NCBI GenBank assembly: GCA_964387845.1
Contig: CAYLXA010000001.1
Coordinates: 345,038-409,037, forward strand
Reading direction: 5' to 3'
DNA: 64,000 nt
DNA from: an uncultured bacterium
GTDB taxonomy: Bacteria; Omnitrophota; Omnitrophia; Omnitrophales; Abzuiibacteriaceae
Position 1 is the first letter of the stretch; the number at the start of each line of letters is the position of its first letter. The position numbers and the translations under genes were made by a program. The notes beneath the pieces were generated by a model that saw only the letters and a program-made list of their open reading frames with translations, was not told where the DNA came from and made no database searches. This document shows, in pieces, positions 23,169-35,082 of this stretch.

Positions 23169-23253
23169 TTAGTGCTAAGGGGTAAGTGATAAGTGGTAAG
23201 TAGAAAAACGATTTTACTTATCGCTTAGCACTTACCACTTATCACTCGTTAGT
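23169..23253. repeat. hairpin repeat family 1 (GTGATAAGTGGTAAGT arms), copy 1
   Basis: agtgctaaggggtaagtgataagtggtaagt...acttatcgcttagcacttaccacttatcactcg forms a long imperfect inverted repeat between convergent genes. Related copies at 30852-30925 and 35006-35082. Confidence 0.75.
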
Positions 23254-23257
23254 CGAA

Positions 23258-23923
23258 TTAAACGTTCGCTGCTAAATCAGACCACGGATATTCGCCGGTC
23301 CAATGATAACCGGGATTATCCACGTGATTTGGTACCAAGCATCCGTAGATGTTGCCCAAACCATACACCATGCGGCTCCACCAGAACCACACGCCTTTTC
23401 CGATACCTTTGACCACATTGCCTTCTTTGCTTCCCTTGACAATCTGGCCCGGAACTTCCACGATGCCCGTAAGGCCGTTGGCGAAACCATGTATCAATTT
23501 TCTGCCGTAAGGCTTCACGCCTTCTTTTAGATTCGGCTTGAAAATACTGTACGCGGTTCCCCATTCCCACGAACGTTCGGCGTCAAACGGAATACCAACG
23601 CCCTGGTTGGATGCGGGGCTGGCAGCCCAGAATCCAAATAGCTCGGTGAATCCTGAAACTTCGCGGCCGGCAAAATGGCCAAAACCTTTGAAAAATCCAA
23701 GAATAGTGCCGACTGCTTTTGAAGCTGGTTTATTCTTGATCACACTCAAGCCTGTGTCATATCCTTTGTAAATCTGCACCGGTACTTCAACAATACCTGT
23801 GACGATATCAATGACACCGCGGACAGCTCGCTGACCCATTCCTTCGACAATTGGGCCTGCGCTAGCAATTCCGCACGGCAATACTAGTGAAAGTGCAAAA
23901 ACAAGCGCAATAACTCTACGCAT
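23258..23923 (-). CDS. secreted protein with two tandem TIGR04073-like modules
   Basis: Signal peptide MRRVIALVFALSLVLPCGIASAG. Repeated RAVRGVIDIVTGIVEVPVQI / HGFANGLTGIVEVPGQI and GTILGFFKGFGHFAGREVSGFTELF / GIGKGVWFWWSRMVYGLGNIY motifs. Paralogous to 14567..14914. Confidence 0.5.
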   Translation of the reverse strand: MRRVIALVFALSLVLPCGIASAGPIVEGMGQRAVRGVIDIVTGIVEVPVQIYKGYDTGLSVIKNKPASKAVGTILGFFKGFGHFAGREVSGFTELFGFWAASPASNQGVGIPFDAERSWEWGTAYSIFKPNLKEGVKPYGRKLIHGFANGLTGIVEVPGQIVKGSKEGNVVKGIGKGVWFWWSRMVYGLGNIYGCLVPNHVDNPGYHWTGEYPWSDLAANV

Positions 23924-24112
23924 GTTTCCTCCTCTTGGTTGGTTAATGAGTTAAATATAATCAGACCGTTTAATATTTTAAGATAAAGCCGGCCTACCTT
24001 AAATGACGGCTTTACGGCGCAAAACTTGAAAGAAAGGATTTTATGCTTTGATGACAACACTTAATTCTTTACTTAATAAAAAGGCGGATTTTATCGTTAT
24101 AGTAAGCTGACT

Positions 24113-25714
24113 ATGACATCTCTAAATAACCTAAAATCAGACGGAATCGAAATTAAAGGCGCTCTTACGCCTGCCTTCTCCGAAATCCTAACGCCTGAAG
24201 CCGTCAAATTTGTTGCGAGCCTTGAAAAAAAATTTGGGGCCCGTCGGCTTGAATTATTAGAAAAGCGCAAGGTCAGGCAAGCAGAAATCAACGCCGGCAA
24301 AATGCCGGACTTTCTAAGCGAAACCAAATCCGTCCGCGACAGCGACTGGAAAGTTGCACCGATCCCGAAAGACCTCCTCGAACGCAAAGTCGAAATCACA
24401 GGGCCCGTGGAACGCAAAATGATGATTAATGCGCTTAATTCCGGCGCCAATGTGTTCATGGCCGATTTCGAAGATTCCAACTCACCGACTTGGCAGAACA
24501 ACATCGAGGGGCATATAAATTTGCGCGACGCCGTCAATCGTACGATATCATTCAAAAACCCTGACGGAAAAGAATACCAACTGAACGATAAAATCGCGAC
24601 TTTGCTGGTTCGGCCGCGCGGCTGGCATTTAAACGAGAAACACATGACTGTGAGCGGCAAAGAAATCTCCGCTTCCTTGTTTGATTTTGGGTTTTTCTTT
24701 TTCCATAACGCGAAAACTTTGATCCAAAAAGGAACAGGCCCCTATTTTTATTTACCCAAAATGGAAAGCCACTTGGAAGCGCGTTTGTGGAATGATGTGT
24801 TTAATTTCGCACAGGATGAAATCAAAATCCCGCGCAGCTCAATTCGCGCGACGGTTTTGATTGAAACCATCTTAGCTTCGTTCGAAATGGATGAAATTTT
24901 GTACGAACTGAAAGATCACTCCGCAGGCCTCAATTGCGGACGCTGGGATTATATTTTCAGCTTCATCAAGAAATTCCGAGAGAAACCGGATTTCCTGCTT
25001 CCCGACCGTGCGCAAGTGACAATGGATAAGGCTTTCCTGAAGGCCTATGTCGAACTTTTGATCAAAACATGCCACCGCCGCGGCATTCACGCGATGGGCG
25101 GCATGGCGGCACAGATTCCTATTAAATCTGACCCCATTGCCAATGAAGCGGCGCTCGAAAAGGTCCGTCAGGACAAGCTTCGCGAAGTAAAAGCTGGCCA
25201 CGACGGCACTTGGGTTGCGCATCCGGGACTTATTCCGATCGCCATGGATGCCTTCAATCAAAATATGAAAGGTGCTAATCAATTAAATGTCGCACGTTCC
25301 GAAGTTCAAATTACGGCAAAAGATTTGCTCACCGTTCCAAAAGGCGATATCACCGAAGCCGGCCTCCGCAAAAATGTGAATGTCGGAATTCTCTACATCG
25401 AATCGTGGCTGCGCGGCTTGGGATGTGTACCACTTTATTACTTGATGGAAGACGCTGCAACTGCGGAAATCTCGCGCACGCAAGTGTGGCAATGGATCCG
25501 GCATCACGCGAAAATGACAAACGGTGTTCAAGTGACAGCTGAGTTGGTACAGAAAATCGTGAAGGAAGAACTTGCCGATATGGAAAAATCGGTTGGTGTT
25601 GAGAAATTTAAATCCGGAAAATTTAAACTTGCTTCAGAAATTTTCTACGAAATGAGTACTCGAAAAGAATGTCCTGACTTTTTAACGATCGAAGCTTATA
25701 AACATTTAGATTAA
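24113..25714 (+). CDS. aceB: malate synthase A
   Basis: The N-terminus and GPVERKMMINALNSGANVFMADFEDSNSPTW region are collinear with E. coli AceB; 533 aa. Confidence 0.95.
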   Translation: MTSLNNLKSDGIEIKGALTPAFSEILTPEAVKFVASLEKKFGARRLELLEKRKVRQAEINAGKMPDFLSETKSVRDSDWKVAPIPKDLLERKVEITGPVERKMMINALNSGANVFMADFEDSNSPTWQNNIEGHINLRDAVNRTISFKNPDGKEYQLNDKIATLLVRPRGWHLNEKHMTVSGKEISASLFDFGFFFFHNAKTLIQKGTGPYFYLPKMESHLEARLWNDVFNFAQDEIKIPRSSIRATVLIETILASFEMDEILYELKDHSAGLNCGRWDYIFSFIKKFREKPDFLLPDRAQVTMDKAFLKAYVELLIKTCHRRGIHAMGGMAAQIPIKSDPIANEAALEKVRQDKLREVKAGHDGTWVAHPGLIPIAMDAFNQNMKGANQLNVARSEVQITAKDLLTVPKGDITEAGLRKNVNVGILYIESWLRGLGCVPLYYLMEDAATAEISRTQVWQWIRHHAKMTNGVQVTAELVQKIVKEELADMEKSVGVEKFKSGKFKLASEIFYEMSTRKECPDFLTIEAYKHLD

Positions 25715-25775
25715 CTTCCCTCACCCCTCCCTCTCCCTCAGGGAGAGGGATAAAGGGAGAGGGGAATTAAGGGAG
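25715..25775. repeat. ccctctccc/gggagaggg palindromic repeat, copy 2 (aceB-aceA intergenic)
   Basis: ccctcacccctccctctccctcagggagagggataaagggagaggggaatt shares the perfect ccctctccctcagggagaggg palindrome and gggagaggggaatt with the copy at 1886-1980. Confidence 0.7.
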
Positions 25776-33467: not shown

Positions 33468-33479
33468 TTTAAAGTCCTT

Positions 33480-34610
33480 TCACCTTAATTCGTCATCATA
33501 CTGTGATTCAAATTGCTTTTTAAAACTTGAAAAAGTACCGCCCCGGACCGCTTCCCGGATTTCGCGCATGAGCGCCAAAAAGAAATAAACGTTGTGATAT
33601 GAAAGAAGCCGGTCTCCCAAAATTTCTCTGCAGTTTACCAGATGTCGGATATAACTGCGAGAGAAGTTTTTGCAGGCATAACAGCCGCAAGTTTCATCGA
33701 GCGGCTTCTGATCCTCGGCATAATTTCCGTTCCGGACCACGATTTTGCCGCGCCGTGTGAAAGCCGTTCCGGTTCTGCCGTATCGGGTGGGATTGACACA
33801 ATCAAACATATCAAAACCGGCTTCCACGGCCATCAACAAATCCAGCGGTGTTCCGACACCCATTAAATATCGGGCGTGATCTTTGGGCATTGCGGGCCCC
33901 ATTTCGCGCACGATTTTGATAATTTCATCTTTCGACTCACCGACGCTCACGCCGCCCAGCGCATAGCCGTCGAATCCGATTTCAACCGTACGTTCAAGGG
34001 ATTCTTTCCGAAGATCCATGAATTTCCCGCCTTGAATAATGCCAAAGAGCTGCTGATTTTGAAGTTTGTGCGCCTTTTTGGATCGCTTCGCCCATTCAAT
34101 AGTCAGGTTGAGTGATTTTTTTACATATTCAAAACCGGCGTCTGCATGCGGACACTCATCAAACACCATCGCAATATCGGAACCAATCACTTCCTGAATT
34201 TCGATTACCAACTCCGGTGTAAACAAAATCTCGCGGCCGTCAAAGTGAGAATTGAACACAGCGCCTTCTTCCGTGAGTTTGCGCAATTTTGCGAGACTAA
34301 AAACTTGAAACCCTCCGGAATCGGTCAAAATCGGATGCGGCCACGTCATGAATTTGTGAAGCCCGCCGGCTTTTTTTAATATCTCAAGGCCGGGCCGGAT
34401 ATATAAATGGTAGGCGTTGCCCAAAATGATTTGAGCTCCGGCCTCCTCGAGCTCGCGCGGGCTCATGGTTTTCACGGTTCCCTGTGTGCCCACCGGCATA
34501 AAGGCAGGCGTTTCGAAAACGCCGCGGGATGTATGCACGCAGCCCGTCCGGGCTTTGGAGTTTGGATCGGATGTTAATAGCGAAAATGATTTTGACGGCG
34601 CAGTTTTCAT
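33480..34610 (-). CDS. tgt: queuine tRNA-ribosyltransferase
   Basis: [18 protein letters not shown] and Zn-site CGCYAC are Tgt motifs. Confidence 0.95.
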
Positions 34611-34999
34611 GCAGGCTTCGGCGGGATTGCGATCACGTGAAACGGAAAGCGCCTGAAGAGTTCGCCGTTTAAGAGCACTTCAACCGAATATTTTCCGGCC
34701 GTTGCGAATTGGACATTGTTAAACCGCGAAATAATAATATGGCTTGCATCATAATCTTTGAGCGTAAATTTTACTTCCGGCGAGGTTACAACTTGCTGGT
34801 TGTCCGGATCCACGATTCTGGATTGCTGCCGGAATTCGCCTGCGCCGACACACCACTGATTCGCGATGTGGAGCACAACATGCATGACCGGAAATTTCGG
34901 CGAAGCAATTGTGTTAAACGCGCCGATGAAGATAAACTTTCCGTTCCCTTCCTGGCGCACGTCATCGCAAAGTATGGAATATTGAAGTTCTGGTTTCAT
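34607..34999 (-). CDS. hypothetical protein inserted between queA and tgt
   Basis: 130-aa ORF overlapping tgt by 4 nt (translational coupling). No recognisable domain. Confidence 0.5.
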
Positions 35000-35005
35000 T
35001 TTTTC

Positions 35006-35082
35006 AGTTGTAAGTCGTAAGTGGCAAGTGTTAAGTTGATTGATTAACTTAGCACTTACAACTTACCACTTATCACTCGTTA
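35006..35082. repeat. hairpin repeat family 1, copy 3
   Basis: agttgtaagtcgtaagtggcaagtgttaagt...cttagcacttacaacttaccacttatcactcgttaatc. The right arm is near-identical to copy 1. Confidence 0.75.

Follow-up and report, generated by a model that had tools for sequence, protein, structure and literature searches.

The three palindromes described here, found in a 64-kb stretch of DNA from an uncultured bacterium (positions 345,038 to 409,037 of contig CAYLXA010000001.1; hereafter the window, the whole 64 kb to which all within-window counts apply), are one unit-family, RTAAGTG/CACTTAY, of a class of 7-nt tandem repeat arrays that recurs across the Omnitrophota. The window itself was placed in Candidatus Omnitrophota by its SecDF homologues. 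The account that we favor, and to which we give about an even chance, is that the three copies are palindromes akin to the short, tandemly repeated, repetitive DNA (STRR sequences) of cyanobacteria, which would be built by slippage and would form stem-loops marking the ends of cistrons. The likeness lies in units of exactly 7 nt, an intergenic location, the ability to form hairpins, and orthologous spacers that vary between relatives yet stay repeat- or hairpin-bearing. We have filed the elements as STRR-like rather than as STRR sequences proper because the host is not a heterocyst-forming cyanobacterium, its relatives being metagenome-assembled genomes of Candidatus Omnitrophota.

All three palindromes are imperfect, span 65–90 nt and carry about four tandem heptamers per arm. 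The left arms are composed of NTAAGTN units and the right arms of their complement, and AG(T/C)G precedes the array. A preliminary description of this DNA had reported three imperfect inverted repeats, and stems were recovered at each of the places that it gave (Table 1). It had also taken the arms to be built from hexamer-like units, which proved to be incorrect, as Tandem Repeats Finder assigned a period of 7 to six of the six arms and our scan for local periodicity gave the same period. The right arm of copy 2 has one extra, unpaired heptamer (tatgact) at 30902-30908. Folding of the three copies on both strands gave z-scores from -6.4 to -8.9 (-8.9 on the plus and -7.2 on the minus strand for copy 1, -6.9 and -7.7 for copy 2, and -6.4 on both strands for copy 3), and none of 200 dinucleotide shuffles folded as well. 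The motif GTAAGTNNTAAGT, allowing at most one mismatch, was matched 17 times in the window against 0.25 expected, and all 17 matches were within the three copies. Chance or low complexity as the origin of the copies was ruled out by the motif count, the shuffled folding and the period scan.

The copies resemble one another most closely at their ends. Copies 1 and 3 have 22 identical terminal bases (acttaccacttatcactcgtta) and also share cttagcacttac, at an offset of 7 nt, such that the difference between them is one whole heptamer. The preliminary description had given these two copies an arm segment in common, but only copy 3 has the 35-mer cttagcacttacNacttaccacttatcactcgtta in full, copy 1 being one heptamer short of it. 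The outer 17-mer AGTGATAAGTGGTAAGT is present in five of the six arms, and the loops of the three copies are mutually unrelated. A further segment assigned to copies 2 and 3 (cattttttcag) is shared by them, but it is not part of the palindrome, as it corresponds to the CAT of a start codon plus the leader CTGAAAAA.

Each copy lies between open reading frames (ORFs). The earlier view that the copies are a true family of hairpins dispersed over short gaps between genes is supported. Copy 1 is situated between the convergent stops of an inositol-monophosphatase-family gene and a gene for a 221-residue hypothetical protein. Copy 2 fills the intercistronic spacer of secDF and recJ, with the ATG of recJ 8 nt past the repeat, and copy 3 fills the spacer between queA and a DUF6941 gene, with 8 nt from the end of the repeat to the next ATG. 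In both of the latter copies, the stop codon and the next ATG are at the two feet of one stem. No Shine-Dalgarno sequence was visible in the leader of recJ or of the DUF6941 gene, and the leader abuts the foot of the hairpin. Copies 2 and 3 are probably inside one operon, queA-DUF6941-tgt-yajC-secDF-recJ.

The observation in the preliminary description that no U-tract follows the stems was upheld by reading of the sequence, the tails being CUGAAAAA, CGUUAGUC and similar. Our terminator scan, which seeks a short G+C-rich stem with a U-tract, placed no site at the copies. Based on these two results, and in agreement with the preliminary description, the copies are not canonical intrinsic terminators. 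In searches against Rfam at the gathering score no family was found at the copies, the only matches in the window being tRNA and a c-di-GMP-I riboswitch, and the sub-threshold matches at the copies were solely microRNA-precursor-like. Elsewhere in the window, two GC-rich stems, at 10106-10155 and about 14518-14563, each preceded by an A-tract and followed by a T-tract, were read as canonical terminators, indicating that ordinary intrinsic terminators are also used by this organism.

The three copies are part of a larger class. In the window, the local-periodicity scan picked out 12 period-7 arrays, a single array of period 9 and none of periods 4–6, 8 or 10–13. These 12 arrays form six palindromes made of four different units and occupying at least six spacers: the three RTAAGTG copies, two AAATTCA palindromes and one ACAAGCT/AAGCCTG palindrome. 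Every period-7 array of the window has an inverted partner and is A+T-rich. The two AAATTCA palindromes have a 24-nt outer end in common (TAAATTCAAATCTCAAATTTCAAA). An additional AGCGGAT/ATCCGCT palindrome was found, as were two palindromes of similar habit made from CCCTCTCCC and GGGAGAGGG (Table 1). The left arm of the AGCGGAT palindrome overlaps the predicted ATG of queA (36152-36154), and so the real start of that gene may lie further downstream. The element class should be recognized in annotation, as the longest-ORF starts of both queA and maf fall in array arms.

Table 1. Heptamer palindromes of the window and the gene features at their borders (strand is given where assigned)
Feature	Position	Strand	Remarks
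Copy 1 (RTAAGTG)	23165-23251		38 pairs; loop 23206-23211; dG about -40 kcal/mol; minimum free energy fold
Copy 1, left arm	about 23171-23205		AGTG CTAAGGG GTAAGTG ATAAGTG GTAAGTA
Copy 1, right arm	about 23212-23246		outer TAAC/GTTA pairs in addition
Copy 2 (RTAAGTG)	30858-30922		24 pairs; loop 30882-30891; minimum free energy fold
Copy 3 (RTAAGTG)	35006-35077		30 pairs; loop 35040-35043; minimum free energy fold
Inositol-monophosphatase-family gene, stop TAA	23165-23167	+	gene 22352-23167; TAA forms outermost pairs of copy 1
221-aa hypothetical gene, stop TAA	23258-23260	-	gene 23258-23923; 7 nt from copy 1
secDF, stop TAG	30921-30923	-	inside first heptamer (GTTAGTG) of copy 2
Leader CTGAAAAA (8 nt) and recJ ATG	30842-30852	-	same 11 nt follow copy 3
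queA, stop TGA	35084-35086	-	copy 3 arm, TAACGAG + GTGATAAGTGGTAAGT, starts 1 nt later (minus strand)
Leader CTGAAAAA and DUF6941-gene ATG	34997-35007	-	directly after copy 3
AAATTCA/TGAATTT palindrome	29067-29174		between convergent rpmB and recJ; each arm starts with the TAA stop of a gene
Second AAATTCA palindrome	46306-46432		spacer between TPR gene and maf; arm begins with TAA stop of TPR gene
AGCGGAT/ATCCGCT palindrome	36129-36237		upstream of queA; 62-nt center; just under scan threshold
ACAAGCT/AAGCCTG palindrome	28648-28750		divergent pepA-rpmB spacer
CCCTCTCCC/GGGAGAGGG palindromes	1892-1977, 25711-25770		similar habit; period ambiguous between 6 and 7

To follow the fate of these spacers we compared the window with three syntenic loci from close relatives (L203, L204 and L205), whose SecDF proteins are 84–91% identical. 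The spacer between queA and the DUF6941 gene, which holds copy 3 in the window, has an ACAGAGA hairpin in L203 and does not exist in L204, where the two genes overlap (ATGA), while L205 is without the DUF6941 gene. The secDF-recJ spacer, which holds copy 2, has a GTGAAGC hairpin in L203, an AGCGNNT hairpin in L204 and weak, non-repeat structure in L205. The hairpins that the window, L203 and L204 carry in these two spacers all fold with z below -4. The same spacers have kept a hairpin while its unit was replaced. The genomes compared are only about 80% identical in DNA, as measured in the genes of L203 and L204. In the divergent pepA-rpmB spacer the ACAAGCT/AAGCCTG palindrome of the window is exactly 49 nt, or seven units, longer than its L203 orthologue, which is of the same family; L204 has no array in this spacer and L205 has a different gene neighborhood.

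The site of copy 1 lies outside the L204 and L205 loci. In L203, whose SecDF is 90% identical to that of the window, the site is occupied by a GC-rich stem of 11 bp with A5 before and T5 after it, which by reading looks like a bidirectional terminator. Our simple terminator scan missed this stem, its apical part probably being over the loop limit of the scan. Among the relatives as a whole, the spacer 3′ of secDF has heptamer hairpins with other units in four loci (L004, L018, L203 and L204) and plain GC hairpins or terminators in six others (L009, L024, L028, L034, L047 and L082).

Arrays of differing unit were also seen in another orthologous spacer, between a 407-residue gene and a gene of about 200 residues, which has direct arrays of GTGTACC in L006 (4269-4307), TAGTAGA in L007 (2288-2324) and GGAGTTA in L031 (4073-4107); the last of these repeats a GGAG core.

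To establish how common such arrays are, we surveyed secDF and its surroundings in species-representative genomes, 80 loci with a total of 1.27 Mb. These relatives' loci had 109 arrays at period 7, compared to 5, 26, 12, 33 and 8 arrays at periods 5, 6, 8, 9 and 10, respectively. The arrays were in 29 loci, Omnitrophota or Planctomycetia-labelled, plus both Kiritimatiellota loci. None was found in the ten loci with non-PVC labels (Syntrophaceae, Smithellaceae, Deltaproteobacteria, Synergistaceae, Mailhella, Ancylobacter, Sphingomonadaceae and Pseudobdellovibrionaceae), nor in 22 kb of Ca. Velamenicoccus. The 121 arrays of the relatives' loci and the window together comprise 89 canonical units, and the units are genome-specific. 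Roughly one array in three has an inverted partner next to it, with 39 of 121 scoring at least 30 when the 99th percentile of the control was 27. A stretch of 13 kb identical to the window was found on a Logan contig from run SRR15237813, and an identical SecDF protein is on record for an NCBI contig of 409 kb.

The position of the arrays relative to genes is strongly biased. Arrays occupy 10% of tandem, 9.6% of convergent and 2.9% of divergent spacers, and their density per kb is 0.64, 0.41 and 0.14 in these three spacer types, respectively, versus 0.03 in ORFs, a 13- to 20-fold excess over ORFs for the tandem and convergent types. Of hairpins between co-directional genes, 33 were measured. 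Their stems begin at a median distance of 2 nt past the stop codon upstream (interquartile range -1 to 9), 29 of them within 15 nt of it, and the median distance to the next start codon is 27 nt.

There is, in addition, a polarity to the arms. In a set unbiased with respect to unit, purines predominate in the 5′ arm of 19 hairpins and pyrimidines in that of 4 (p = 0.003), or 17 versus 4 when counted by family, and the direct-only arrays of tandem spacers have a purine-rich sense strand in 22 cases versus 10. We considered whether purine-first polarity might be a general trait of 3′ hairpins and rejected this, since ordinary hairpins divided 82 versus 73 (183 hairpins). The polarity may indicate that primary arrays arise on the sense strand by the stop codon, and that the partner arm is added distally. 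A fixed orientation was seen when metagenome contigs were searched for the 17-mer AGTGATAAGTGGTAAGT, with at least 120 loci matching. Among the matches listed, 77 were in real arrays, on contigs of 25–67% G+C, and all 28 with an inverted partner had TAAGTG in the 5′ arm and CACTTA in the 3′ arm, the opposite order being found in none. These matches are not copies of one element, because their loops and flanks are not conserved.

A scan of viral contigs gave four matches, one of which was a real array, a direct TAAGTG array followed at once by an array of CCAGTAA heptamers (L209, viral contig IMGVR_UViG_3300025106_000112, 9674-9800). Two other ideas about the arrays were set aside. The first, that arrays accumulate at contig ends as a sign of multiple copies, did not hold, with 11 observed versus 8.6 expected. 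The second was a role in providing stop codons in all three frames, which a stop-containing unit would do within three units because 7 mod 3 = 1; this had weak support, with stop triplets richer in 5′ arms in 11 cases versus 6 and in direct arrays in 17 versus 8, and neither strand of units such as GTCGCAA contains a stop.

Based on these observations, the favored account can be stated more fully. An element in the narrow space between a stop codon and the following gene would form the last part of the transcript of the cistron upstream and would fold into a stem-loop of 24–38 bp. Such a stem-loop might pause or stop RNA polymerase, and/or block 3′ exonucleases or be cut by a double-strand RNase, for which stems of 24–38 bp should be long enough. 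It would thereby mark the end of the cistron and allow different parts of one operon mRNA to be treated differently, a role that would be REP-like (see below) or terminator-like without a U-tract. The arms would be built and resized by slipped-strand mispairing that adds or removes whole 7-nt units, and over longer times unit-families would be copied to other spacers, replaced and lost, with gene conversion or mobilization in trans as candidate means. We arrive at this reading because the arrays occupy the niche of 3′ stem-loops, structure is kept while the unit is replaced, and length differences are of whole units.

Several of our results weigh against this account. About two thirds of the relatives' period-7 arrays have no inverted partner, and so hairpin formation is not universal in the class. 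For the 33 hairpins between co-directional genes, the sense strand is the more stable in 13, the antisense strand in 16, and 4 are ties; with no sense-strand G.U bias, selection on RNA pairing is not demonstrated, and for that reason a function at the RNA level is a step that we infer. The lack of purine-first polarity in ordinary hairpins shows that heptamer and ordinary hairpins are not equivalent in every respect. A full terminator is unlikely at copies 2 and 3, as both are probably within one operon and queA and the DUF6941 gene overlap in L204. Finally, slippage is not fast, as the hairpins of L203, L206 and L207 (99.98% identical, and so strain-level relatives) are identical, with no variation in the number of units.

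A serious rival is mobility in trans. According to this explanation the copies would be non-autonomous elements, resembling miniature inverted-repeat transposable elements (MITEs) or REPINs, with the heptamer arrays as inverted ends, a transposase encoded elsewhere, and any effect on RNA a side-effect; we consider it possible, if rather unlikely. The preliminary description had likened the copies to repetitive extragenic palindromic (REP) sequences and bacterial interspersed mosaic elements (BIMEs), or to MITEs. The copies do have the position of REP sequences, being extragenic, near stops and inside operons. They lack a REP head motif (a conserved palindrome of 20–40 nt), having heptamer units alone in common, and their arms differ by whole units, and membership of REP/BIME is not supported.

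The likeness to MITEs was likewise partial. The terminal repeats are inverted and have the outer 17-mer in common, there are filled and empty sites, and an AGCGGAT arm recurs at non-orthologous sites. However, the interiors are not conserved, many arrays are direct only, and no target-site duplication is consistent: TTAG...TTAG is readable at copies 1 and 2 and nothing at copy 3, while TTAA flanks two other elements. The search for a cognate REP-associated tyrosine transposase (RAYT), which the preliminary description had advised, returned none in the window, where 0 of 48 scanned ORFs match a Pfam transposase or RAYT family, and no autonomous relative was identified among these ORFs. We regard membership of the copies in either REP or MITE families as not established.

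Points for mobility come from the shared outer ends, both of the RTAAGTG arms and of the AAATTCA pair, and from the comparison of orthologous sites. The queA-DUF6941 site is empty in L204. The recJ-rpmB site, which holds the AAATTCA palindrome at 29067 in the window and GC hairpins in L204, is empty in L203, where the genes overlap, and in L205, where the spacer is 4 nt, with a single TTAA left in each. The site between the isocitrate lyase and malate synthase genes (outside the L204 and L205 loci) holds the CCCTCTCCC/GGGAGAGGG palindrome at 25711-25770 in the window, and in L203 this is cleanly absent, leaving an 11-nt spacer with a single CTAA that includes the malate synthase stop codon. 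These two sites thus have TTAA on both sides when filled and one TTAR when empty. In addition, the right arm of the L204 AGCGNNT hairpin in the secDF-recJ spacer (5172-5269) matches the palindrome upstream of queA in the window at 26 of 27 nt, and the polarity fixed within the TAAGTG family, among the metagenome matches listed, also counts for mobility. Nevertheless, TTAA is itself palindromic and may simply belong to the arms, and deletion between two short direct repeats would also yield sites that appear empty. A YTAR (IS5-like) target preference was tried and discarded, as YTAR was not enriched at array-adjacent stops (14 of 41 versus 355 of 1139). Mobility would also need very many families, all with 7-nt periodicity, to give 89 units in 121 arrays, and slippage is the better fit to arrays that are direct only and to lengths that differ by whole units.

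A neutral origin, in which slippage arrays accumulate in dispensable DNA as by-products of replication or repair and acquire inverted partners by template switching, is improbable in our estimation. It would explain the build-up near stops by the non-coding DNA there being free of promoters and ribosome-binding sites, and it is in keeping with the huge diversity of units, the lack of a sense-strand G.U bias and the dispensability of the sites in close relatives. Heptanucleotide repeats are, moreover, described in papers citing Mrazek 2007 as the most over-represented class of long simple-sequence repeats in many bacteria, and attributed there to polymerase slippage (PMC4679880, PMC4692102). 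We disfavor a purely neutral origin based on the excess of adjacent inverted partners, which independent slippage cannot give, the purine-rich 5′ arm, and the spacers that keep a hairpin while the unit changes; the depletion of arrays in divergent spacers also counts against it.

Two further possibilities we hold to be quite unlikely. Arrays of protein-binding sites, either in DNA (for a global regulator or a nucleoid protein) or in RNA (for a translational regulator or stop-start coupling), would fit a polarity that does not vary inside a unit-family, the recurrence of one unit, among the matches listed, on contigs of widely differing G+C content, the stop and next ATG at the stem feet of copies 2 and 3 without a Shine-Dalgarno sequence, and published proposals of such a kind (PMC2700814, PMC4679880), but with at least four unrelated units in 64 kb and 89 across the relatives one sequence-specific protein cannot read them all, and no candidate binder is encoded beside the elements by Pfam analysis of the 48 window ORFs. 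No better placed, even taken jointly, are a sequence-independent but period-7-specific process that adds or copies units on both arms at stop-adjacent hairpins, and hairpin-bridged termination-reinitiation, in which the stem might join the upstream stop and the next ATG so that ribosomes pass without a Shine-Dalgarno sequence. If either of these two were true, it would represent a new genome-wide element type in Omnitrophota, Kiritimatiellota, cyanobacteria and others.

Some other features of the window were recorded. The c-di-GMP-I riboswitch (GGC variant), at 58063-58137 on the plus strand, is upstream of a 430-residue ORF (58214-59506) that has no Pfam match. The ORF after it (59785-60255) has a weak match, below the Pfam curated cut-off, to the pilin-type N-terminal methylation motif. 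The intervals 24113-27088, 12233-14494, 21011-22192 and 217-9039 of the window encode malate synthase and isocitrate lyase of the glyoxylate shunt, together with aconitase, isocitrate dehydrogenase, multihaem cytochromes and ResB/CcsA cytochrome c assembly genes.

The nearest known counterparts of the elements are the STRR hairpins of cyanobacteria and heptanucleotide simple-sequence repeats. Hairpin-forming 7-base intergenic repeats have been on record in cyanobacteria from about 1990 onward, and no agreed function for them has emerged. For the STRR hairpins of the hupS-hupL gap, the proposed roles are in transcript stability, translational coupling, pausing or termination (PMC2670836), and the same paper cites Jackman & Mulligan 1995, on "highly variable but structured intergenic regions". 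The elements of the window share with the STRR sequences tandem 7-bp units, an intergenic or intercistronic location (hupS-hupL and nif regions in cyanobacteria), inverted arrays and several unit families per genome, and they differ in belonging to the phylum Omnitrophota and in their units. Relative to the STRR sequences as they are portrayed in the citing description, the present work adds an anchor at the stop codon, a polarity with the purine-rich arm leading, and the exchange of an element for a terminator-like hairpin in a relative. No report combining Omnitrophota with heptamer repeats was found in our literature search. That an unrelated, uncultured phylum has this architecture too suggests that it reflects a bacterial solution or mutational process of a general kind and not a cyanobacterial oddity. 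The architecture follows three simple rules here, namely that the element starts at the stop codon, that the purine-rich arm comes first, and that the hairpin is kept while the unit is replaced. Together with these positional rules, the recurrence across phyla makes the old question of STRR function testable, and the terminator-like hairpin of L203, exactly at the site of copy 1, provides a concrete hypothesis for doing so.

Other heptamer repeats are comparable in part. The GGGAATC repeats of Xanthomonas and GGGGAYT repeats of Nostoc are also intergenic with period 7, vary within the same spacer between close relatives and include some inverted pairs (PMC4692102). Those repeats are, however, G-rich and discussed as quadruplex formers, whereas the arrays of the window are A+T-rich and all have an inverted partner. 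The paired hepta- and octanucleotide sites of Geobacter metallireducens similarly have four to five tandem heptamers, occur on both strands and have many copies (PMC2700814), but are read as DNA sites for regulators 5′ of operons, with stop-codon anchoring unreported. The TAACTGA repeats of Beggiatoaceae, cyanobacteria and Bacteroidetes resemble our arrays in filling the last nucleotides before start codons, but they are almost all direct and have a single unit.

The REP, BIME and REPIN elements, which stabilize or attenuate mRNA (PMC3333891, PMC3116915), are likewise short dispersed extragenic palindromes, often after stops and in operons. They differ from the three copies, whose arms are tandem repeats with no REP head and which have no RAYT among the scanned ORFs of the window. 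The intrinsic terminator, lastly, is also a stem-loop after a stop codon, and the GC stem of L203 with its A and T tracts occupies the very site of copy 1. The copies depart from it in having no U-tract, in the A+T-richness and length of their stems, and in two of the three being inside an operon.

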